Source: Breznakia blatticola (GTDB lineage Bacteria; Bacillota_I; Bacilli_A; Erysipelotrichales; Erysipelotrichaceae). From it: a stretch of DNA of 30,757 nucleotides. The stretch covers positions 1 to 30,757 of the forward strand of contig NZ_SODD01000029.1 of assembly GCF_004365815.1 (NCBI RefSeq), written 5' to 3'. The notes below the pieces were generated by a model that ran no database searches, was not told the origin of the DNA, and saw nothing but the letters and a program-made list of their open reading frames with translations. The position numbers and the translations under genes are program-made. Shown here piece after piece: positions 2,744-30,662 of the stretch (its first letter is position 1; every line of letters starts with the position of its first letter).

Positions 2744-3124
2744 TGGTGGAGCTGAGGAGAGTCGAACTCCTGTCCAAAAATAGCCTCGTGTACAAACGTC
2801 TACAGTTTAGTTTGTTTATATAAGAGTTAGATTGAAAACAAACAATCGAGTCTAACAATTTGGTTTATTCAATTTCAAGGATGTAGCTAAACCAAATACA
2901 TCCCCTATCTTCCTAGTTATACGAGTTTAGCAAGTGGAAAGATACACTCACCAACAAGGCTGCAAACCAGTTGTTAGGTTAAATTAAGCAGCGAAAGCTA
3001 CGCTTTGGTTAGCACCAAAGAAGCTTGATAATTTGTTTTTTCCAGTTAAATTGGATTGATGGTTACGCCATCAGCCGACTGCAGTTCATACTAGACATAT
3101 CCCTGTCGAAACCATGACAGCCCC
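2744..3124 (-). ncRNA. ssrA: tmRNA (transfer-messenger RNA)
   Basis: The minus strand begins GGGGCUGUCAUGGUUUCGACAGGG and ends GGACAGGAGUUCGACUCUCCUCAGCUCCACCA. The internal tag frame at 2984-3043 encodes GKNKLSSFFGANQSVAFAA followed by a stop. It lies directly downstream of smpB. Confidence 0.95.
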
Positions 3125-3135
3125 ATGTCGTAGAT

Positions 3136-3165
3136 AGTATAACACTATCTATATTTCTTTGCCAA
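3136..3165 (-). promoter_or_regulatory. Candidate ssrA promoter inside the 3' end of smpB
   Basis: On the minus strand, TTGGCA (3160-3165) is followed by an 18-nt spacer and TGtTATACT (-10 at 3136-3141). It ends 11 nt before the mature 5' GGGG. An 8-bp hairpin (3131-3151) overlaps it. Confidence 0.45.
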
Positions 3166-3591
3166 CTTTTGCATCATACGACTTGCATCACGATCTTTTT
3201 CCGTTTGACGCTTATCATATAAGTGTTTCCCCTTTGCTAAAGCAATTTCAAGTTTTGCTTTACCATGGTGAATATATAACCGTAGTGGCACAACGGTATA
3301 TCCTTGTAGTTTTACCTTTTGTTGGAGTTTCTTAATCTCATGCTTATGCAATAAGAGTTTTCTTTCTCTAGTCTCATCGTGATTGAAACGATTTCCATAT
3401 TCATATGGAGGAATGTGCATATTTTTAATATATGCTTCACCATCAATAAATGTGATGAAGCTTTCTTTCAATTGCACAGATCCTTTACGGATACTTTTAA
3501 TCTCTGTTCCATGCAAAACAAGGCCAGCTTCAAACGTGTCCTCAATGAAATATTCATGCTTTGCTTTTCGATTGACAGTGATTACTTGCAT
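3145..3591 (-). CDS. smpB: SsrA-binding protein SmpB
   Basis: The 148-aa ORF has the typical NRKAKHEY...GTEIKS...LLLHKHEI sequence. SD AGGAGG is present. It lies adjacent to tmRNA. Confidence 0.95.
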   Translation of the reverse strand: MQVITVNRKAKHEYFIEDTFEAGLVLHGTEIKSIRKGSVQLKESFITFIDGEAYIKNMHIPPYEYGNRFNHDETRERKLLLHKHEIKKLQQKVKLQGYTVVPLRLYIHHGKAKLEIALAKGKHLYDKRQTEKDRDASRMMQKLAKKYR

Positions 3592-3599
3592 ATTTCCTC

Positions 3600-4742
3600 C
3601 TAGTAAACTACTTCTATTTTATCATTCATGACTTGATTAAGTAAATCAATAAAATACTGACGTTTCATATCCAATCCTTTTTGCGTTAAGGTATGAACAC
3701 TTGCCATTTCATCCGTATAGTCTTTTAATGCATAGACTTTATAGTTATGGAATGCATTGGTGATTTGTGTAATCGTCGGAATGAATTTCACATCTTTGAA
3801 TGTTACTTCTTTTGTTTTGGTGTCATAGCTCATAGTAAAACTTGCTAGACCACCTAACATATTGTCATTTCCATCTTGTGCAGATAGAAAGTTTCCTAAT
3901 GAATAATAGGTTAGTGTTGTATTTCCATTTTTACCAGTGAGAATATCTCCAGTTTGAATGACATGTGGATGTCCACCAATAATAACATCAGCACCTGCAT
4001 CACTTAAAAACTGTGCAAGTTCTTTTTGTTCGTCATTTGGTTCAAAGTGGTATTCTTCACCCCAGTGCATACTTACCATTTGAATATCACTATTTGCATT
4101 TGCTTCTTTCATGTCTTTAGCGATAATCTCTTTATCGATAAGATTGATTAGATATGATTTTCCTTCTGGTAATTCAAAGCCATTCAGTCCATATGTATAA
4201 CTTAGAAATGCGACTTTCACACCTTTGATTTCACGGTATCGAATTCGTGATTCATTTGCATCTACTTGCATTCCTGTTTGCATAAGGTCCAATTGCTTTA
4301 AATAGTTGTATTGATTGATGACACCTTGTTCACCACGATCATAACTATGATTACTTGCTGTATTGATCCAGTTAAATCCAGCACCTTTTACATCATCTAA
4401 GATTTCATATGGACCATTGAATTGTGGATAATGACTTAATCCTAGTTCATCACCAGCTGCAAGCGTTTCTTGGTTGATGTAAGAAATATCCTTTTGGATA
4501 TATGGAAGCATTGGTTCATACATCTCATCAAAGCCATAACTACCATCTGCTTTTTTTGCATAATAGTATACTGCTTCATGGATTAGATTATCACCAACTG
4601 CAGATACACTAATATCCACCACTTTACCTTCTTCTACTGGTTTGTTGGTATCTTTTGATGTATCATCTTTCTTTGTATCTGATGGATTTGAACCACAAGC
4701 AACTAACATACACATGATGACTATGACTACCAATTTTTTCAT
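3600..4742 (-). CDS. CapA-family (PGA_cap metallophosphatase-like) lipoprotein
   Basis: The signal peptide carries the lipobox LVAC-GS. CapA-type motifs are GDNLIH, NTASNHSYDRG, HWGEEY and IIGGHPHVIQ. SD AGGGGGA is present. Confidence 0.8.
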   Translation of the reverse strand: MKKLVVIVIMCMLVACGSNPSDTKKDDTSKDTNKPVEEGKVVDISVSAVGDNLIHEAVYYYAKKADGSYGFDEMYEPMLPYIQKDISYINQETLAAGDELGLSHYPQFNGPYEILDDVKGAGFNWINTASNHSYDRGEQGVINQYNYLKQLDLMQTGMQVDANESRIRYREIKGVKVAFLSYTYGLNGFELPEGKSYLINLIDKEIIAKDMKEANANSDIQMVSMHWGEEYHFEPNDEQKELAQFLSDAGADVIIGGHPHVIQTGDILTGKNGNTTLTYYSLGNFLSAQDGNDNMLGGLASFTMSYDTKTKEVTFKDVKFIPTITQITNAFHNYKVYALKDYTDEMASVHTLTQKGLDMKRQYFIDLLNQVMNDKIEVVY

Positions 4743-4757
4743 CTTACATCCCCCTAG

Positions 4758-6854
4758 TTATTTCTTAACAATCACAAAATCAATTTGCTTACGCATCTTG
4801 CTAGCATCTTCGACTTTAATTAAGACTTTTTGTCCCATTTTATAAATTATACCACTTGTTTCTCCAACTAATGCTTTTGCATTTTGATCATAGTGATAAT
4901 AATCATCTTCTAAACTTGTAATATGTACAAGTCCTTCCACTGTATTTTCCAGTTCCACGAATAATCCAAAACGAGTAACTGAAGATATCACACCATGGAA
5001 CTTTTTACCAATATAGCGTTCCATATATTCACATTTTTTCATATCATCTACATCACGTTCTGCTTCAATCGCATTACGTTCCATTTTCGATGTATGTTCA
5101 CTTGCTTCATCTAAGAATGCTTCGTCTTTTTCGATCTGTTTAAGATCAGTTGTCGCCTTAAAGTAGTAACGTTTCAGCATTCGGTGGACAAGTAAATCAG
5201 GATAGCGTCGAATTGGAGACGTAAAGTGTGTATACTCTTTCAATCCCAAACCAAAGTGTCCTAAATTGACCATATCGTAACGTGCTTTTTGCATACTACG
5301 AAGCATATACGTACTTAACACATCAAAATTTTCATTCCCTTTTGCTTGCACTAATAAATCTTGTAATTGCTTTGGATAGATATTTTGTGGATCAGCTTTT
5401 AATGGATATCCTAATGCACTACTTAAGTTGGCAAATTCACGAATCTTCTTAGAATCTGGATTTTCATGCACGCGATACATACTTGGCATTTGCATATGCT
5501 TTGTATGTGAGGCAATACATTCATTTGCGGCAATCATAAAGTCTTCAATCATACGTTCTGCATCACCGCGTTCACGTAATACGATATCTTTGACTCTTCC
5601 TTTTGCATCTACAAGGATTTTGCTTTCCTTCTTATCAAAATCGATTTCTCCAAGTTTTGCTTTACGCTTTTGTAGGATCTTAGATAATTCCAACCCTAAT
5701 GTAATCATCTCTTGTACATCTTTATACTTGCGTGTGACTTTAAGATCACCTGCAAGTATTTTATTTACATCAGTATACGTCATTCGATGACTACTTTTAA
5801 TTACACTCGGTACGATACGATAATCAACAACTTCACCTACTAGGTTGATTTCCATCACACAGCTCATCGTTAATCGATCCACTTTCTCTTGCAAACTACA
5901 TACCCCATTACTTAATAGCTGAGGCAACATTGGCACAACGCGATCTACAACATATACACTTGTTGAACGTTTATATGCTTCTTTATCGATAAGTGAACCT
6001 TCGGTTACATAATGCGATACATCAGCAATATGCACTTGTAGTTCATAATTACGACCTTTCTTTTTGATGTGGATTGCATCATCTAAATCCTTTGCATCTT
6101 CCCCATCAATGGTAATAATGCACGTATCTCTAAAATCCTCGCGTCCTTTTATTTGATCAACTTCCACTGTCTCAGGTATTTGTTGGGCTGCATCAAGCAC
6201 GGCTTTTGGGAAGACTGGCTCAATATCATGCTCAAGTAAAATCGATAGGATATCCACTCCTGGATCATACTTGTATCCAAGAATTTGCAGAATGCGAATG
6301 TACATCGTTTTCCCATACTTTTCAATGAATACTTGTACCTTTGTGTCATTGACCATTTTAAAGGCATCTTTATTCACAATCTTGAATTTTTGTTCAGGCA
6401 TTGGTGTATCTGGTAAAAACCACATCCGACCATCCTTTTTCTTAATGACACCTACTAACGTGTTCTTATTGCGTGAAATAACTTTGATAATTTCACATTC
6501 CACACGACCTTCATTGTCTTGATGAATTCGAGCTAACACCTCATCTCCATCCATAATATTCTTCACTTCATAACGGTTTGCATACACACTTGTGTCTTCA
6601 TTTTCCACAAACCCAAATCCTTTTGGATTCTTTCGTAATATACCTACAAAATATCCAAGTCGTTCCAAAGGAAAATAACGGTCTTTTTCATCAGTAATGA
6701 TGATGTATTCATTTTCCAGTGAATTCAATGCTTTTAGTAAAGCTGTAAAGTCTTCGCTACTCTCTACATGGAAAGCACGTTTAAAGTCCTCTACATTCAT
6801 CCCTTTATACTTTTGGCTTTGCACCGTATCCAGGATCATGTTCATATATTCCAT
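4758..6854 (-). CDS. rnr: Ribonuclease R (3'-5' exoribonuclease, RNB family with C-terminal S1 domain)
   Basis: The 698-aa ORF has cold-shock-like GFGFV, the RNB motifs DGEDAKDLDDAI and SPIRRYPDL, and an S1 domain GLFVEL. It sits in the conserved position upstream of smpB. Confidence 0.95.
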   Translation of the reverse strand: MEYMNMILDTVQSQKYKGMNVEDFKRAFHVESSEDFTALLKALNSLENEYIIITDEKDRYFPLERLGYFVGILRKNPKGFGFVENEDTSVYANRYEVKNIMDGDEVLARIHQDNEGRVECEIIKVISRNKNTLVGVIKKKDGRMWFLPDTPMPEQKFKIVNKDAFKMVNDTKVQVFIEKYGKTMYIRILQILGYKYDPGVDILSILLEHDIEPVFPKAVLDAAQQIPETVEVDQIKGREDFRDTCIITIDGEDAKDLDDAIHIKKKGRNYELQVHIADVSHYVTEGSLIDKEAYKRSTSVYVVDRVVPMLPQLLSNGVCSLQEKVDRLTMSCVMEINLVGEVVDYRIVPSVIKSSHRMTYTDVNKILAGDLKVTRKYKDVQEMITLGLELSKILQKRKAKLGEIDFDKKESKILVDAKGRVKDIVLRERGDAERMIEDFMIAANECIASHTKHMQMPSMYRVHENPDSKKIREFANLSSALGYPLKADPQNIYPKQLQDLLVQAKGNENFDVLSTYMLRSMQKARYDMVNLGHFGLGLKEYTHFTSPIRRYPDLLVHRMLKRYYFKATTDLKQIEKDEAFLDEASEHTSKMERNAIEAERDVDDMKKCEYMERYIGKKFHGVISSVTRFGLFVELENTVEGLVHITSLEDDYYHYDQNAKALVGETSGIIYKMGQKVLIKVEDASKMRKQIDFVIVKK

Positions 6855-6875
6855 ATATTTTCCTCCTTTCTATGA

Positions 6876-6900
6876 AATAAAAAAAGACCAATAGGTCTTT
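6876..6900 (-). terminator. Intrinsic terminator after secG
   Basis: AAAGACC (6883-6889) pairs with GGTCTTT (6894-6900) around the loop AATA. A run of seven U follows on the minus strand. Confidence 0.6.
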
Positions 6901-6923
6901 CTATATTCTAATCGCAATAACTA

Positions 6924-7154
6924 CTAGAAGATTCTAATCGCAATAACTAACATAAAGAAAATAATACCCATTACAAGCGTAATTCTGGCTATTACCTTCT
7001 CAGGTCCACGTTCTTTCACATTTGCAAATAGGTTCAAACCATCTCCACCTGTAAAAGCACCACTAATTCCATCAGACTTTCCACTTTGTAATAACGAAAG
7101 GACGATAATAGCTCCAGAAACTATCATTAATAATACATCTAACATTTTATACAT
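6924..7154 (-). CDS. secG: Preprotein translocase subunit SecG
   Basis: The 76-aa two-TM ORF has the LLQSGKSDGISGAFTGG signature. SD AGGAGG is present. Confidence 0.9.
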   Translation of the reverse strand: MYKMLDVLLMIVSGAIIVLSLLQSGKSDGISGAFTGGDGLNLFANVKERGPEKVIARITLVMGIIFFMLVIAIRIF

Positions 7155-7175
7155 CCTCCTTTCATATGCCTTACA

Positions 7176-7204
7176 ATTTTAGCATATAATTTAACGTATT
7201 TCAA
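7176..7204 (-). promoter_or_regulatory. Sigma-A-type promoter of secG
   Basis: On the minus strand, TTGAAA (7199-7204) is followed by a 17-nt spacer and TAAAAT (7176-7181). Confidence 0.5.
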
Positions 7205-7300
7205 TAGGCAAGTTGTGAAACGAAATTCTAATATTTTAAAGTAATTCTACCTATCAACAAAAATAATAAATATTTACCCACCATTTCGCAAACTACTTTT

Positions 7301-7857
7301 TTATCCTTCAGGATTGTATAATATATCTTCGTATCCTTGTTCCACATACCATTCCAAGTAATCAAAGAAACCTTCATGACTCAATCCATATTCTCTATAA
7401 TATACGTTTACCCATGCCTATGCTTCTTTCATGCTTTCAATTACTTCTTCATCGCAATCAGTTTCTTCTGTTTCATAATAGTACATGCAATATGTAATAT
7501 CAATATCTTTACTATTCCTAACTTTTGCTTTTTTTCACGAGGTTTATCGAGACTATCAAATATTACAATTCTCTTATCGTCTTTGTACTCAAAACCAATT
7601 GTAATTGTTCTCTCTCCTACCCCTCGTGATAGTCTCCAATAATGTACCCCTAAATCGTTCTTTGAATCGAGAGTAACACTTATTGAAGTTGATCGAGTAT
7701 CAATTGAGTCAACTATGACTCCAGCCTTATCCATTTTCTCTTGGTACTTTTCTCCACTGAATGTTTGATTGCATCCCATCAGCATGCATATCATAACCAA
7801 TACACTCAAGATTCTTTTTTTCTCATATCCTGTTATCCCTCTTCTTACAGCACTCAC
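7301..7857 (-). pseudogene. Decayed copy of the array lipoprotein (at least 3 lesions)
   Basis: Poly(A) after the canonical ATG (7824-7826) is A7 (7815-7821), against A8 in the copy at 8972-8979. The mid-gene tract is A7 (7529-7535), one short of in-frame. An in-frame TAG sits at 7418-7420, where the other copies have GAA. Confidence 0.8.
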
Positions 7858-7876
7858 TTAAGTATATATCCACTTT

Positions 7877-8404
7877 TTATCCTTCAGGATTGTATAATAT
7901 ATCTTCATATCCTTGTTCTACATACCATTCCAAGTAATCAAAGAAACCTTCATGACTCAATCCATATTCTCTATAATATTGGTTTACCCTTGCTTCAGCT
8001 TCCTTCATACTTTCAATTACTTCTTCATCACAATCGGTTTCTTCTGTTTCATAATCATATGTACAATATGTAATATCAATATCTTTACTATTTCTAACTT
8101 TTGCATTTTTTTCACGAGGTTTATCAAGACTATCAAATATTACAATTCTCTTATCGTCTTTGTACTCAAAACCAATCGTAATTGTTCTTTCTCCTACCCC
8201 TTGTGATAATCGATGATATGCTACACCTAAATCAATCTTTGGATCGAGAGTAACACTTATTGAAGTTGATCGAGTATTAATCGAGTCAATTACGACTCCT
8301 GCCTTTTCCATTTTTTCTTGATACTTTTCTCCACTAAATGTTTGATTGCATCCCATCAGCATGCACATTACAACCAATATACTTACGATTCTTTTGTTAC
8401 TCAT
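7877..8404 (-). CDS. Lipoprotein, array paralogue (putative orphan immunity protein)
   Basis: The 175-aa ORF has a signal peptide with lipobox LMGC-NQT and SD GAGGGA. It is homologous to 9036-9563. The mid-gene A tract is interrupted (AAAAAAAT), which keeps the frame. Confidence 0.85.
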   Translation of the reverse strand: MSNKRIVSILVVMCMLMGCNQTFSGEKYQEKMEKAGVVIDSINTRSTSISVTLDPKIDLGVAYHRLSQGVGERTITIGFEYKDDKRIVIFDSLDKPREKNAKVRNSKDIDITYCTYDYETEETDCDEEVIESMKEAEARVNQYYREYGLSHEGFFDYLEWYVEQGYEDILYNPEG

Positions 8405-8455
8405 ACCCTGTTATCCCTCTTCTTACAACATTCACTTGAATGTTTATCCACTTTT

Positions 8456-8984
8456 TTATCCTTCAGGATTGTATTCAATATCTTCGTATCCTTGTTCTAC
8501 ATACCATTCCAAGTAATCAAAGAAACCTTCATGACTCAATCCATATTCTCTATAATATTGGTTTACCCTTGCTTCAGCTTCCTTCATGCTTTCAATTACT
8601 TCTTCATCACAATCAGTTTCTTCTGTTTCATAATAGTACATGCAATATGTCATATTTAAATCTTTGCTATTATAATACTTTGCTTTTTTTTTCATGAGGC
8701 TTATCCAGACTATCAAGTATTACAATTCTTTTATCGTCTTTATACTCAAAACCAATCGTAACTGTTCTCTCTCCTAACCCTCGAGATAATCGATGATATG
8801 CTACACCCAAACCGTTCTTTGAATCGAGTGTAATACTTATGGAAGTTGATCGCGTGTTAATCGCATCAATTACAACTCCAGCTTTATCCATTTTCTCTTG
8901 GTACTTTTCTCCACTGAATGTTTGATTACATCCCATCAGCATACACATTGCAATCAATACACTCAAGATTCTTTTTTTTCTCAT
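8456..8984 (-). pseudogene. Array lipoprotein split by a +1 frameshift in an A9 tract
   Basis: ORFs 8670-8984 (N-terminal half) and 8456-8716 (C-terminal half) overlap at the T9 run at 8684-8692. Removing one A gives a continuous ~175-aa paralogue (..HEKKAKYYNSKDLNMTYC..). Confidence 0.8.
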
Positions 8985-9035
8985 ATCCTGTTATCCCTCT
9001 TCTTACAACATTCACTTAAGTGTATATCCACTTTT

Positions 9036-9563
9036 TTATCCTTCAGGATTGTATTCTATATCTTCGTATCCTTGTTCCACATACCATTCTAAATAATCAA
9101 AGAAACCTTCATGACTCAATCCATATTCTCTATAATATTCGTTTACCCTTGCTTCTGTTTCCTTCATGCTTTTAATTACATCTTCATCACAATCAGTTTC
9201 TTCTGTTTCATAATCATATGTACAATATGTAATATCTATTTTCTTATTATTATATAATTCTGCTTCTTTTTTGCGATAATTATCAATACTATCAAATATC
9301 ACAATATTCTTATCTCTTTCATATATATAATCAATCGAGAATATTTTCTTCCCTATACCTCGCGATAATCGATTATATGATACTCCTAAATCGTTCTTTG
9401 GATCAATCACAATATTTATCGTGGTCGCTCTAGTATTAATTGAAGTAATTTCAATTCCAGCTTTATCCATTTTCTCTTGGTACTTTTCTCCACTAAATGT
9501 TTGATTGCATCCCATCAACATACATATCATAACCAATATACTTAAGATTCTTTTATTTCTCAT
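9036..9563 (-). CDS. Lipoprotein immediately downstream of the LXG gene (putative cognate immunity protein)
   Basis: The 175-aa ORF has lipobox LMGC-NQT. Its start lies 4 nt after the LXG stop, with SD AGGGGAG inside the last LXG codons. Its central ~90 aa diverge from the other three copies while both ends are conserved. Confidence 0.85.
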   Translation of the reverse strand: MRNKRILSILVMICMLMGCNQTFSGEKYQEKMDKAGIEITSINTRATTINIVIDPKNDLGVSYNRLSRGIGKKIFSIDYIYERDKNIVIFDSIDNYRKKEAELYNNKKIDITYCTYDYETEETDCDEDVIKSMKETEARVNEYYREYGLSHEGFFDYLEWYVEQGYEDIEYNPEG

Positions 9564-9567
9564 AGCA

Positions 9568-11301
9568 TTACTCCCCTACTTTCTTAATCATAAAATTTTC
9601 AACTCGTATTACAATCTCTTCAATTTTGTTCACATATTCTAAATCGTTATACAAATCTGCTACATCTACTTTAGGAAGTTTAATATATAATGTCCCTTTC
9701 TCATCTTCAGTATACTCACATCCAGACAAGGAATCGCACAATTTCTTTACTTCACCTTTTTTTTCCATTTTACCCACATTAATTCCATATGTTGCTATTG
9801 CATCTAACTTCTGATTATAATTATCTACTGCTATTCCTGTAGCTTCGCTAAGAATAAACTGTGTCTTATCTTTCACTGTTATACACTTCAGATCAAATTC
9901 ATCTACCAACCCTGAATTAAGTAATACATCTTCATCTGTAAATCTTGAAGTACTTGTATACTTTCCGTTTTTATACTTTTCTATTTGCTTTGAATCAATT
10001 CCATACACATTCATAATATCTGACAATGCAATTGCACCATCTACTATAGTTAGTACTCCTATCTGATCCACAAATCCGACACCATAACTCATTAACCCCA
10101 ATAGGGTATCTACTCGATCCATCATTCGTTTATTTTCTACATAATCGATTATCATTTCTTTTTCTCCTAATCGACCATGTGATTTTACTTCAAATTCCAC
10201 AGCATTGTTATTACCTGAATCTGCAAACGATACTCCAGTAAGTAATCCTTTTCCATCTATCTCGTCATATGAAAATAGCGCTTCTGTTCCTAATATACCT
10301 CTTAGATCAAATACATAATCTAATTGTATGCTCATTTCCAACATTGCTTCTACTTTTACAAATCGTTTCGCATATTTTTCCCATTCGAAATCTTTGTTGT
10401 TTACATTTAGGATTCCTTCTTCTCGTAGTTTATGTTCACTCATAAAAAGTACTAATTGAAATAGTGGTGAAGGTGAATACCCATTCTTCACCTGCGATTT
10501 TTCCGTGTCATATATTTGTGTTATGTCATATGGCACATTATATCCATACGTCATAATTAATGGCATTTCACTTTCATCAATGCGAATGATAATATCCGTG
10601 ATATTTTCGAATTCTTCACGACTAACTTCACCAATATCTTTCTTAAGTATTCTTTCGATATACTTCTTTCCTTCGTCAGTCAATTTACCATCTGCAGTAA
10701 TGTATTTAGATAAATATGCGTCTTTCGACTTTTCTACCCATGATAAATCAACATCTGTAAACTGCAGTTTTTTAGTATCAAAACTTACATCCTTTACTAC
10801 TTCGATTCCGCGCTTTAACTGTTGAATGTATATCTCTGTGTGATCATAATACTTATTTGCTTGTATGTCATAATCATAAAGATCATCTATCTTTCTTCTC
10901 AACACTCTTAAATTATATTGATATAGTTCTTCAATCCCTGCAGTAAACTGCATTGGCATACTTTCCAATTTTCTTAACATTCCGTTTATACTCATAATTA
11001 TCGTCTCAATTTCTTCCTCATTAAGATATTGATCTCCGAGCATACATGTGTATAGATTTTCAGTACTTCGATTTGATCGAATCAGTTCCTCACACAACCA
11101 AATATGAATCTGATATAAATTATAATACACACTTCGTATATAACGTTTATGAGCTGCAAATGCTTGTCCTTGTAATTCTTGATTCACACAAAAAGCATCA
11201 ATCTCTTTCAATACAGATTGACTAGTTTCTTTCATTTCTCTTAATGCACTATTTAAATCACTGAATTGGTTTTGTATCTCTCTAAGATGGAAGGACTTCA
11301 T
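9568..11301 (-). CDS. LXG-domain polymorphic toxin candidate (T7SSb substrate) with an unassigned C-terminal domain
   Basis: The helical N-terminal ~200 aa carry L43-Q-G45 in the context QELQGQAFAAHKRYI. SD GAGGAGG is present. It is preceded by two small overlapping helical ORFs and followed by lipoprotein genes. No signal peptide is visible. Confidence 0.75.
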   Translation of the reverse strand: MKSFHLREIQNQFSDLNSALREMKETSQSVLKEIDAFCVNQELQGQAFAAHKRYIRSVYYNLYQIHIWLCEELIRSNRSTENLYTCMLGDQYLNEEEIETIIMSINGMLRKLESMPMQFTAGIEELYQYNLRVLRRKIDDLYDYDIQANKYYDHTEIYIQQLKRGIEVVKDVSFDTKKLQFTDVDLSWVEKSKDAYLSKYITADGKLTDEGKKYIERILKKDIGEVSREEFENITDIIIRIDESEMPLIMTYGYNVPYDITQIYDTEKSQVKNGYSPSPLFQLVLFMSEHKLREEGILNVNNKDFEWEKYAKRFVKVEAMLEMSIQLDYVFDLRGILGTEALFSYDEIDGKGLLTGVSFADSGNNNAVEFEVKSHGRLGEKEMIIDYVENKRMMDRVDTLLGLMSYGVGFVDQIGVLTIVDGAIALSDIMNVYGIDSKQIEKYKNGKYTSTSRFTDEDVLLNSGLVDEFDLKCITVKDKTQFILSEATGIAVDNYNQKLDAIATYGINVGKMEKKGEVKKLCDSLSGCEYTEDEKGTLYIKLPKVDVADLYNDLEYVNKIEEIVIRVENFMIKKVGE

Positions 11302-11530
11302 TTTCTGTTTCCTCCTCTTTACTTATTTCTCTTTCTATCTCTTCTAACTCTTGACTTACTTTATTCATTGCCCTTTTATGAATATCCAAGCTTTCTTTTG
11401 ACATATTCCCACTGTCAGTCAAAGGAAATATCTCATAAAGATTTGCAAACAATTCATTGCTTTCCTTTAATAATTCTCTTAGTTCTTCAAGTTTCCCTTT
11501 TTGTATATACAACACATCTTTACTATTCAT
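11282..11530 (-). CDS. Small alpha-helical LXG-associated protein (Lap2/DUF3958-like)
   Basis: The 82-aa ORF is rich in charged residues and predicted helical. It shares an ATGA overlap with the upstream ORF and overlaps the LXG start by 20 nt, suggesting translational coupling. Confidence 0.55.
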   Translation of the reverse strand: MNSKDVLYIQKGKLEELRELLKESNELFANLYEIFPLTDSGNMSKESLDIHKRAMNKVSQELEEIEREISKEEETENEVLPS

Positions 11531-11790
11531 TTTCCAATTTCATCTCCAATCTTCGTATCAAGATTTTTAAAGCTTTTGGAAATAGTTTCTACTTTACCCA
11601 TATCTCTTTTAAAGTAATTATGAATACTTTTGTGTATAGTAAAAGTTTCATTTGCTTGAAATGAAATTCTTTCTTGTGTAGATAGAGTAGTAGCAGATGA
11701 ATATTTTACTTGATTGATAGTTGTTTTTACTTTAGCTTGTAGTTTATTAAGAAAACTACTTATATACTTATGATTAACTCGAACTGACAT
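11527..11790 (-). CDS. Small alpha-helical LXG-associated protein (Lap1/DUF3130-like)
   Basis: The 87-aa ORF is the first gene of the operon, with SD GAGGGGA. It contains YFKRD (YxxxD) and FKNLD (FxxxD) near the C-terminus. Confidence 0.55.
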   Translation of the reverse strand: MSVRVNHKYISSFLNKLQAKVKTTINQVKYSSATTLSTQERISFQANETFTIHKSIHNYFKRDMGKVETISKSFKNLDTKIGDEIGK

Positions 11791-11820
11791 TCTTTTCCCC
11801 TCATATCATTTAATTATATA

Positions 11821-11848
11821 ATTATAACAGTTGAGATTTTTTCGTCAA
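11821..11848 (-). promoter_or_regulatory. Strong sigma-A-type promoter of the LXG operon
   Basis: On the minus strand, TTGACG (11843-11848) is followed by a 16-nt spacer and the extended -10 TGtTATAAT (-10 at 11821-11826), about 25 nt upstream of the first SD. Confidence 0.6.
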
Positions 11849-12235
11849 TGTTCGTTTACTTTGCTCAATCATTTCATAACGACTAAAGCGGTAATTTTTA
11901 CAATTGTGAAACTGATGGTTTTTTATCATTTTCTTGATTACGACTCAACGGTAAGAAGAAAAAAGACACAATTGGCATTGCTAAATATAGCACCATAATA
12001 ACATCGTGTGCACCGTTTGCCTGCACGATTTAATAACATGTCAAACGAGTAAAACTTTATGATTCAATACATATTCCTTATAATCACACCTACAACTACA
12101 TCATTATCCTAATCATTTGTCTCTTTTATAACAGCACATACAATGTAACACACTACTATCTATATTATTAAGTTTTACATTTCTCCATATTCTCCAATCA
12201 TATTTATAGTATTTCTTTTTTAGAATATCAGCTAA

Positions 12236-12266
12236 ATATAAAGAAAACGACCACCGAAGTGATCGT
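12236..12266 (-). terminator. Intrinsic terminator of eno
   Basis: On the minus strand, ACGATCAC-TTCG-GTGGTCGT forms 8 pairs with one G-U, followed by TTTTCTTTAT. It lies 20 nt after the eno stop. Confidence 0.65.
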
Positions 12267-12285
12267 CTCTATTGATGAATGTAAA

Positions 12286-13662
<1,377 letters not shown>

Positions 13663-28829: not shown

Positions 28830-30662
28830 CCTAAACTTCCCATAAAAAGATAACTAAACAGCAAAAAGAAGCATATTACTCCCCAACTTTGTTAAGTCGT
28901 TGTGTATATGCTTCTACTTCTTTATTATCTATTCCAAATGGCTTTAGTATTTCCTTTTGCTTTTTCGTGATTCCATATCGTCTAATATATTCACTATTTA
29001 TATTTCGGCTGACTTCTACTTTGTTCATTTCATTTATTATCGCTGGAATCGTATATTGTTTTCTATTTTTCTTACGTAGACCTTTTGTCTTCACATAGAT
29101 ATCATTTCTTACAATATTCGCTAGAAACGTCACAAACGTTTTCGCCTCAAGCGATACATCATCATGTACTCCAAATCCGTCATATCCTAAATTACTTTTC
29201 AAACTTCTAAATAGTTTTTCCACTGTATCTCTATCTCGATAAATTGTAAGAGCTTCTTCTGCACTCATTTCCTTTGAAGTGACCAAAACAAAATATCCCA
29301 TTGCATCTATTTCTTTTTGTATTTTATCTGTCCTTTTCGTATATTTCTTTAAATATCCATTATCGTCATATGTAATTTTAAAACCCTTTTCAAATCGCTT
29401 TAAATCTTCTCTTTTGCTTAACATCGTTTTAGATGTTTTTTCTTCTAATTCTTTTTCCATTTTTTGATATACATTTAACAATCCCAACCTCTGATTATTT
29501 GCTTTCTCTCCATCATAATAAACATGCACATAATATTGATCTTCACTGTTTTTATATAGTTGCTTTTTTACTGTTTTCCCATATACACCATACGGTTCTA
29601 TATAGTATGCTACTTTATCTGCTATTTTTAAACGATTCTCCTCGATTGCTTCTTTTATTGCTGTTTGATTTGTCTTCACCATCATGACCAAATCATACCC
29701 TTTTCTAGCTATATAACCTAGGTTGTCACTACTAAAATATCCTCTATCAAGAATTAATCCAATCCCTTCATATCCATATCCAATTGCTTTATCTACCATA
29801 TATTTTAATTGACTATTATCATTAATACTTCCAGGATACTGTTCATAGTACAATGGTGTCCCTGTTTCTTGGTCAATTGCATAACTTAAATTCACTATTG
29901 GTACTTCATCATCTGCTTTTGCATGTCCAAACTCCGCAAGTTCGATACCTTCACTACATGTATTCATATTTGTGCTATCGTAGCTTATATATACAGTTTT
30001 CGCATGATTCATTTGGTTCCATGAATGTAGAAAAAATTCTCTATCTTTTAAAGAAATTCTTTCTTTAAACATTCTGCCAATTGTCGTATCACTATAGATC
30101 TTATCACTATATATTGGCACTCTACGCATTAGTGTTGGAAAGTATTGCATAACAGTAGATTCATTAATAATCATATATTGAATGAGATCCTTTATTAAAG
30201 GTGAATCATCCTCAAAGATTGAATCAATCAAATCACCAACTTCCAAACTTTGAAGTACCTTATCAATAATCATTGTATTACCGATAGACAACGTGTCTGA
30301 ATGTTGCAAGGGTTCCAACAATTCAAACCATTCAGGAAAAAACTTACGAGCATTATCATTGGGAATCATAAGATTATCATCAATAGCTTTACCAATCGAT
30401 ACACGTTTATTTTGGTTGTGTTTTTTCTCTTTGATATAAACTTTTTTAGCAGTGATATACACATATCCATTTGGATAAACAATAGAACCTTCAGGTCTTT
30501 CAACCTTGATATTATCATAGAACATAGCGACCTCTTTTTTTAGTTATCTTTATAACTAAATTATATCATAAGTCAAGCAATAAAAAAAGCGGAAAAACAT
30601 GAATATTCTCACATTTTTCGCGTTTTATTTATTATTAGTTATCTTTCTTTGGGAAGTTTAGG
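28830..30662 (-). mobile_element. Complete IS4-superfamily insertion sequence (IS1634-family-like), 1833 bp
   Basis: The terminal inverted repeats at 28830-28856 and 30636-30662 match at 25 of 27 positions (CCTAAACTTCCCA...GATAACTA). It has a single 549-aa DDE transposase ORF and is flanked by the 6-bp direct repeat TTGGAC. Confidence 0.85.
28876..30525 (-). CDS. DDE transposase, IS4 superfamily (IS1634-like)
   Basis: The ORF is 549 aa. LILDRGYFS provides the DDE Asp context, and YRDRDTVEKLFRSLK fits the IS4 Y-x2-R-x3-E-x6-K signature. SD AGAGGT is present. Confidence 0.85.
   Translation of the reverse strand: MFYDNIKVERPEGSIVYPNGYVYITAKKVYIKEKKHNQNKRVSIGKAIDDNLMIPNDNARKFFPEWFELLEPLQHSDTLSIGNTMIIDKVLQSLEVGDLIDSIFEDDSPLIKDLIQYMIINESTVMQYFPTLMRRVPIYSDKIYSDTTIGRMFKERISLKDREFFLHSWNQMNHAKTVYISYDSTNMNTCSEGIELAEFGHAKADDEVPIVNLSYAIDQETGTPLYYEQYPGSINDNSQLKYMVDKAIGYGYEGIGLILDRGYFSSDNLGYIARKGYDLVMMVKTNQTAIKEAIEENRLKIADKVAYYIEPYGVYGKTVKKQLYKNSEDQYYVHVYYDGEKANNQRLGLLNVYQKMEKELEEKTSKTMLSKREDLKRFEKGFKITYDDNGYLKKYTKRTDKIQKEIDAMGYFVLVTSKEMSAEEALTIYRDRDTVEKLFRSLKSNLGYDGFGVHDDVSLEAKTFVTFLANIVRNDIYVKTKGLRKKNRKQYTIPAIINEMNKVEVSRNINSEYIRRYGITKKQKEILKPFGIDNKEVEAYTQRLNKVGE

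Follow-up and report, generated by a model that had tools for sequence, protein, structure and literature searches.

A tandem lipoprotein array as the probable immunity end of a genus-restricted LXG toxin cassette in Breznakia

What use could a bacterium have for four neighbouring copies of one lipoprotein gene that agree towards their ends and diverge in the middle? The question is raised by positions 7301-9563 of a stretch of Breznakia DNA of 30.7 kb (the whole of which is called the window here), where four such units follow each other head to tail on the minus strand, behind the gene of a 577-aa LXG-like protein. In our judgement the array probably forms the immunity part of an LXG polymorphic-toxin cassette that is compact, restricted to the genus and of the type VIIb secretion kind. 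The immunity role is argued from the position of the genes and from analogy with characterized systems, while the anatomy, distribution, divergence profile and mosaicism of the array are observed directly.

Anatomy and mosaicism of the array

The units recur with a period of ~579 bp and are separated by spacers of ~51 bp. Coordinates and alignment bear out the four tandem units that an earlier, sequence-only reading of the window had described; what that reading missed is that only copies A and C are intact. The parts of the array are as follows, class I and class II being the two types of central core compared further below.

9036-9563, minus strand: copy A, intact 175-aa lipoprotein, class I core, start 4 nt past the toxin stop codon
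8985-9035, minus strand: spacer 3' of copy A, with a GAGGG ribosome-binding site for the following copy
8456-8984, minus strand: copy B, class II core, pseudogene or off-state, with one +1 frameshift in an A9 run (8684-8692)
8405-8455 and 7827-7876, minus strand: the equivalent spacers after copies B and C
7877-8404, minus strand: copy C, intact 175-aa lipoprotein, class II core
7301-7826, minus strand: copy D, class II core, pseudogene with three lesions
7529-7535, 7815-7821 and 8106-8112: further homopolymer tracts

Copy B is broken into open reading frames (ORFs) of 104 and 86 aa, and deletion of one A regains the 175-aa frame. In copy D, codons 3-5 hold an A7 run (7815-7821) in place of the A8 of copy B, so that the ATG frame is lost; one further nucleotide is missing at 7529-7535, and positions 7418-7420 form a TAG stop codon. 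No additional toxin or lipoprotein fragments turned up when the window was searched with tblastn. The period is beyond the 500-bp limit of Tandem Repeats Finder, which is why that program does not report the array.

The encoded protein is a putative lipoprotein. Its signal, MRNKRILSILVMICMLMG-C19, matches the PROSITE PS51257-type rule in a hand check, and reads as a K/R-rich N-terminus, an uncharged hydrophobic stretch and the lipobox LMG-C19. Neither the cysteine nor the lipobox varies among the seven copies compared, which come from three genomes, namely the window, a second genome (GCA_029893515.1, hereafter L001) and the B. blatticola annotation. The mature protein has 157 residues and a strongly acidic C-terminal half (isoelectric point, pI, 4.05), and the acidic C-terminal 57 residues are its best-conserved part. 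The conserved stretches at the two ends of the mature protein are both present, with narrower limits than first reported: the N-terminal one spans 18 residues rather than ~25, and the C-terminal one, given as ~65 residues, is a uniform block only from near residue 119, because copies A and C have ITYCTYDYE and copies B and D have MTYCMYYYE.

Nucleotide identity of A to B, C and D is 0.89 over alignment columns 1-100, 0.67-0.70 over columns 101-300 and 0.91-0.93 over columns 346-530; the corresponding values among B, C and D are 0.84-0.88, 0.82-0.89 and 0.91-0.94. On a proper alignment, the test that the sequence-only reading had itself named, divergence is therefore non-uniform: core and ends differ significantly when A is compared with B, C or D (Fisher p = 2e-9 to 4e-10), less strongly in B-C (p = 0.007) and B-D (p = 0.0003), and not in C-D (p = 0.68). 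The mosaic is real and is chiefly one of A against the three distal copies, so that the divergent core ascribed to the toxin-proximal copy (0.67-0.70, against ~0.9 in the ends) holds. The 3' part, described as nearly identical in DNA, is actually 91-94% identical. The longest exact stretches shared between units measure 45-101 nt, all of them within this 3' block. The spacers are 84-92% identical among themselves, and 3' block, spacer and next 5' block form one unbroken conserved junction of ~340 bp. Crossovers in this junction would shift whole cores and alter copy number; exact matches of 45-101 nt should suffice for homologous recombination, given the length figures of 40-70 nt quoted for it (PMC9484751).

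Synonymous divergence (dS) between A and C is 0.64 in the 5' end, 0.74 in the core and 0.25 in the 3' end. These values divide the earlier proposal that both ends are homogenised by gene conversion. Only the 3' block looks homogenised, a reading that fits its dS, which lies ~3x below that of the core. Judged by its substitution pattern, the 5' end owes its conservation to purifying selection that acts on the signal peptide and the N-terminal helix and not to gene conversion, since dS does not drop there and the ratio of nonsynonymous to synonymous divergence (dN/dS, A vs C) is 0.10.

The core itself is composite. With B and D conceptually repaired, comparison of the seven copies splits the variable region into at least three modules (residues 37-62, 63-95 and 96-118) that assort independently. 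Over residues 63-95, class I comprises window copy A, the distal copy of L001 and the B. blatticola copy, and class II comprises window copies B, C and D and the proximal copy of L001. Residues 96-118 fall into three groups that cut across the two classes, copy A is unique among the seven over residues 37-62, and the signal peptides group in yet another way. The notion of a variable core inside a constant scaffold thus stands, in the form of modules that reassort among copies. The pairwise homoplasy index (PHI) is significant over six DNA units, the window's four and the two of L001 (p = 0.001), and several pairwise shared tracts are significant as well (p = 0.0005-0.006).

Could the mosaic instead reflect uneven purifying selection on a duplicated gene, with a relaxed middle, neither gene conversion nor a specificity role, and distal copies that are decaying duplicates? 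The 5' end would agree with this, as its dS is as high as that of the core and its conservation is confined to the protein level. So would the pseudogene state of B and D, the PHI value within the window's four copies alone (p = 0.35, not significant) and the dN/dS of the core (0.27-0.72, i.e., below 1, with no demonstrated positive selection). However, the 3' block has a roughly threefold lower dS than the core, and B and C share 101 identical nt in that block though they differ elsewhere. The change of module grouping from segment to segment across the seven copies and the significant PHI over six units likewise speak for recombination, and copy C is intact, with a dN/dS of 0.15-0.17 in its C-terminal part. 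We consider uneven selection a decidedly unlikely explanation of the whole pattern.

The lesions in B and D draw attention to homopolymer tracts. All three runs of at least 8 nt in the window lie inside the cassette: 8684-8692 (the frameshift site) and 8972-8979 in copy B, and 9757-9764 in the hypervariable patch of the toxin gene described below. Runs of at least 7 nt number 15 in the window, and five of these fall in the 2.26-kb array, counts that are not independent because the tracts are paralogous. The clustering could reflect proneness to slippage or a phase switch. A phase switch would make the tracts reversible slipped-strand devices, as in the variable lipoproteins of Mycoplasma, with B in an off-state and not dead. 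Besides the clustering, this would account for the sole lesion of B being a change from A8 to A9 and for three of the four lesions in B and D being single-nucleotide gains or losses in A runs; Erysipelotrichia are, moreover, related to Mollicutes. On the other hand, the nonsense codon in D is a sign of decay and not of a switch, the tracts code for Lys-Lys and the genome is AT-rich, and a homopolymer sequencing error is possible. We give the switch very little credence.

The spacers also hold the palindromes that the sequence-only reading had pointed out, at 8427-8444 and 9010-9025. They are present at chance level: three were observed, against 1.7 +/- 1.5 in simulated sequences of the same composition, and 27% of the simulations reach three. 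No terminator-like site was called in the spacers, and no palindrome has a T-run behind it. On these three results the palindromes were rejected as regulatory elements.

The LXG-like toxin candidate and the distribution of the cassette

Upstream of the array, the cassette is compact and runs from a promoter through two small ORFs and the 577-aa LXG-like protein to the lipoproteins. Its features are:

11821-11848, minus strand: promoter of the cassette, TTGACG-16 nt-TATAAT, TG-extended, matching the consensus at 11 of 12 positions
11527-11790, minus strand: 87-aa small ORF in the Lap1 position, with FKNLD (an FxxxD motif) near the C-terminus
11282-11530, minus strand: 82-aa small ORF at the place of Lap2, sharing 4 nt with the ORF upstream of it
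9568-11301, minus strand: LXG-like polymorphic toxin candidate, 577 aa, with an orphan C-terminal region
10000-10107, minus strand: hydrophobic glycine-rich toxin segment, residues 399-434, Kyte-Doolittle 19-residue maximum 1.68 centred on residue 417
9679-9786, minus strand: hypervariable toxin patch, residues 506-541, with two invariant cysteines, C522 and C528 (Cys-x5-Cys)

The promoter is the best promoter-like site within 6850-12300 and is conserved in L001. Both small ORFs are conserved in the three genomes, and the orthologues of the 87-aa ORF in B. blatticola and in unclassified Breznakia form a single 90% cluster. An FxxxD motif has been described for Lap1 (PMC9600955); by our own estimate its chance of occurring in 87 residues is ~0.2, which is not rare. 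Residues 8-191 of the toxin candidate align with a PF04740-bearing protein at 27% identity (database E = 1.3e-10, pairwise E = 1e-17).

Two segments of the C-terminal region stand out by opposite behaviour. Residues 399-434 hardly vary among the three toxins: two positions show a single conservative change each. In the patch at residues 506-541 all three toxins differ, against ~96% conservation in the remainder. The patch has a dS of 0.56 and a dN of 0.26, whereas dS is 0.05-0.12 in the rest of the gene. Since the patch dS is ~10x that of the first 350 codons, the patch would seem to be an exchanged segment rather than the product of point mutation alone. The patches of the three genomes are about equally distant from each other (roughly 50% identity by hand count) and give no co-variation signal either way.

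The cassette is confined to three Breznakia lineages and occupies a different chromosomal site in one of them. Three relatives of the lipoprotein were found outside the window among 5.8 billion clustered proteins, all from Breznakia. The toxin has two orthologues at 93-94% identity, one in B. blatticola and one in several unclassified Breznakia assemblies. Scans of genome, metagenome and viral contigs for the lipoprotein or the toxin found no related locus. The lipoprotein has no meaningful match in Pfam or NCBIfam, and copies A and C do not match the DUF576 Pfam model at E ≤ 1. Searched against all PDB sequences (phmmer and profile, E ≤ 10), the lipoprotein matches neither TipC nor anything else meaningful, and the toxin has no match; in Pfam, too, the toxin outside its LXG region is without a match. 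At the level of detectable homology both proteins are orphans, and their function must therefore be deduced from anatomy.

In L001, the cassette lies between an alpha-amylase gene and a gene of Cys/Met metabolism (PF01053), a site other than that in the window. The homology runs from ~14 nt upstream of the promoter (~11862) to just beyond the last lipoprotein gene. Gene order and spacing are kept, including the 4-nt junction between toxin gene and copy A, and fit the order of locus tags in B. blatticola, where the gene numbered next to the toxin gene encodes a lipoprotein of the same family. The number of lipoprotein copies varies: the window has four (two of them intact), L001 has two and B. 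blatticola, by its annotation, one.

In 100-bp windows, the window and L001 are 93-100% identical over the first 2 kb of the cassette. Identity is 0.75-0.88 in the toxin stretch for residues 506-541, ~0.90 after it and 0.70-0.75 in the core of the lipoprotein. For the lipoprotein genes, dS (0.5-0.7) is on par with that of the toxin patch. This match in dS suggests for toxin tip and lipoprotein genes a common history, older or imported, unlike that of the conserved trafficking part. Matching variable islands are the usual signature of polymorphic toxins and their immunity proteins and, as a sequence pattern, provide the best indirect evidence that links core and patch functionally.

The same islands bear on the view that the lipoproteins are not immunity proteins but surface or accessory proteins travelling with the LXG gene, such as a receptor, a maturation factor or variable surface antigens. 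The lack of homology to any known immunity family would be expected if this were so, and the conserved acidic C-terminal 57 residues could serve a common function unrelated to toxin specificity. Several observations argue for the immunity reading instead: a lipoprotein gene starts 4 nt past the toxin stop codon in both the window and L001 and is adjacent by numbering in B. blatticola; the array varies in copy number and holds pseudogenes, as do esaG, tipC and tilA arrays; and the variable island of the lipoprotein is mirrored by one in the toxin. We therefore regard an accessory role as unlikely.

If the lipoproteins are immunity proteins, which copy is the partner of the toxin? The sequence-only reading took the proximal copy as cognate and the distal copies as orphan immunities against other toxin alleles. 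L001, with a toxin that is 93% identical, has a distal-type (class II) core in its proximal copy and an A-type (class I) core in its distal copy; as this order is the reverse of that in the window, position does not define the partner, and the proposal fails as a fixed rule. Two of the three distal copies in the window are, moreover, pseudogenes. Even so, every one of the three genomes contains a single annotated class I copy that is intact, whereas class II has no annotated copy in B. blatticola, one copy in L001 and, in the window, one intact copy and two pseudogenes. From this distribution, class I is probably the cognate partner, a view that fits one intact class I copy per toxin-bearing genome, and class II is probably facultative.

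Proposed mechanism and comparison with known systems

The cassette could work as follows. A single promoter would drive two Lap-like helper genes, the 577-aa LXG toxin and the string of paralogous lipoprotein genes, and the T7SSb (type VIIb secretion system) would export the LXG protein together with the two helpers. The lipoproteins would leave the cell by Sec export, be lipidated at Cys19 and become anchored on the outer face of the membrane, where they would bind and neutralise the C-terminal domain of the toxin outside the membrane. Because a lipoprotein antidote would sit on the outer face, this domain, with its hydrophobic glycine-rich segment and Cys-loop, probably attacks the envelope from the outer side. 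Of these steps, secretion, lipidation and immunity are inferred, as is a contact of core and patch.

Within the lipoprotein, the N-terminal helix and the acidic C-terminal helices would form the constant scaffold, and the strand-rich core (residues 37-118) the variable, probably toxin-contacting part; its likely counterpart in the toxin is the Cys-x5-Cys patch at residues 506-541. The two core lineages would be old, class I probably cognate and class II facultative, recently duplicated and mostly decaying in the window. Homologous recombination across the conserved junction would alter copy number, swap core modules and partly homogenise the 3' block. A bolder version, in which a new envelope-acting toxin fold of type VII secretion systems (T7SSs) is paired with a new lipoprotein immunity fold, specificity resides in two co-inherited variable islands (toxin residues 506-541 and lipoprotein residues 37-118) and the A8/A9 tracts act as a phase switch of immunity copies, is a long shot.

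Three characterized systems offer points of comparison. TelC is an LXG lipid II phosphatase of Streptococcus, and TipC is its extracellular, membrane-anchored immunity protein (PMC6193138, PMC9484751). The tipC genes have a predicted lipoprotein signal, 5' and 3' homology blocks and a variable centre that maps to the toxin-binding face, and their arrays show recombination between paralogues and up to 15 copies (PMC9484751); protection is given only by the first paralogue, TipC1 (PMC6193138). The Breznakia cassette resembles this system in its order of lap1, lap2, LXG toxin and a string of immunity paralogues, with the small ORFs here holding the Lap positions, and its array shares the lipoprotein signal, the variable centre between 5' and 3' blocks, the recombination and a varying copy number (4, 2 and 1). 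It differs in that neither the lipoprotein nor the toxin shows sequence similarity to the solved TelC and TipC structures (crescent fold of PDB 6DHX; E ≤ 10), and in that the lipoprotein is short (157 mature residues), acidic in its C-terminal half (pI 4.05) and found in one genus only. The layout of the lipoprotein predicted at low confidence, an N-terminal helix, about six strands and two C-terminal helices, recalls that of TipC, but as a product of modelling this is only a lead.

The second system is TslA, a T7SS lipase toxin of Staphylococcus aureus that is neutralised by TilA, tandem DUF576 lipoproteins (PMC10730906). The arrays of tilA consist of non-identical genes in varying copy number, shuffled by recombination across a conserved stretch (PMC10730906), and the Breznakia array shares the tandem non-identical lipoprotein genes, the variable copy number and recombination at a conserved stretch. 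However, the domain order of TslA is reversed and its immunity genes lie upstream, the Breznakia lipoprotein lacks DUF576, and the conserved stretch is central in tilA genes and terminal in Breznakia.

The third, EsaD, is a nuclease toxin of S. aureus accompanied by strings of esaG paralogues, which undergo loss, gain and mosaic formation by recombination and include pseudogenes (PMC9484751). Both systems have homology blocks that take in the 3' end and the spacer between genes, and both have pseudogenes in the array. In contrast to the Breznakia lipoprotein, EsaG is cytoplasmic (DUF600), and its genes have three homology blocks, whereas only the 3' block is clearly homogenised in Breznakia. 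By sequence, then, the Breznakia proteins are no detectable members of the TipC, TilA or EsaG families, yet they behave alike. The pattern is already published for tipC and esaG arrays, and the cassette adds no new principle; what is particular to it is protein families seen nowhere else.

A number of results weigh against the immunity reading. No T7SSb core genes lie within the 30.7-kb window. The 87- and 82-aa ORFs have no match to DUF3130, TIGR04197 or DUF3958 in Pfam and NCBIfam at E ≤ 1, and the direct Pfam LXG match of the toxin, at 18.4 vs 26.5 bits (E = 0.0022), does not reach the curated cut-off. An exhaustive search of 1.84 billion representatives with a hidden Markov model (HMM) profile of the mature lipoprotein returned only its own family, and residues 200-577 of the toxin, searched alone, have relatives only in Breznakia. 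Modelling was of little help: the AlphaFold2 models are unusable, with a predicted local distance difference test (pLDDT) score of 35 for the toxin and 50 for the lipoprotein, and a Foldseek search with the poor lipoprotein model gave a best E of 0.4 and no TipC among the 50 best listed matches. The within-window PHI value and the core dN/dS below 1, given above, belong to the same side, and only three independent cassettes are known.

If the immunity reading is true, the cassette provides a new toxin-immunity pair from an insect-gut genus of Erysipelotrichaceae, whose toxin domain and lipoprotein have no other relatives in about 15 billion predicted proteins. A lipoprotein antidote would suggest a toxin that acts on the envelope from outside, and to our knowledge only few T7SS toxins do so (TelC and TslA). 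The small size of the cassette and the concentration of its variation in two short islands would make it convenient for mapping the residues that set toxin-immunity specificity. The cassette would also carry beyond staphylococci and streptococci the rule that recombination in immunity arrays is driven by blocks of homology.

Surroundings of the cassette

The flanks of the cassette are housekeeping genes, with enolase (eno) and its terminator (12244-12269) upstream and secG, rnr, smpB and the transfer-messenger RNA (tmRNA) gene downstream. The cassette interrupts this housekeeping block (2744-7154 and 12286-13599), and the tag peptide of the tmRNA is GKNKLSSFFGANQSVAFAA. Between the last unit of the array and secG (7155-7300) no intrinsic terminator was detected, and cassette transcription may therefore read into secG; a promoter-like site for secG with a TG extension is present at 7176-7204.

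Between the enolase terminator and the cassette promoter, ~420 bp (11863-12285) are apparently non-coding, have no counterpart in L001 and no Rfam match, and may be the remnant of an insertion event. Flanking repeats of the cassette were found in neither genome. The candidate att-like or direct repeat at the cassette borders of both, TTTGCGAA...GGTAAA, was rejected, as the match is at chance level (shuffle p = 0.34).

Two observations lie farther away. A DDE transposase gene (PF01609) at 28876-30525 lies close to the contig end, which fits an assembly break at an insertion sequence. In L001, positions 10600-10900, upstream of the PF01053 gene, hold a long leader that looks structured by eye and could be a riboswitch or a T-box.

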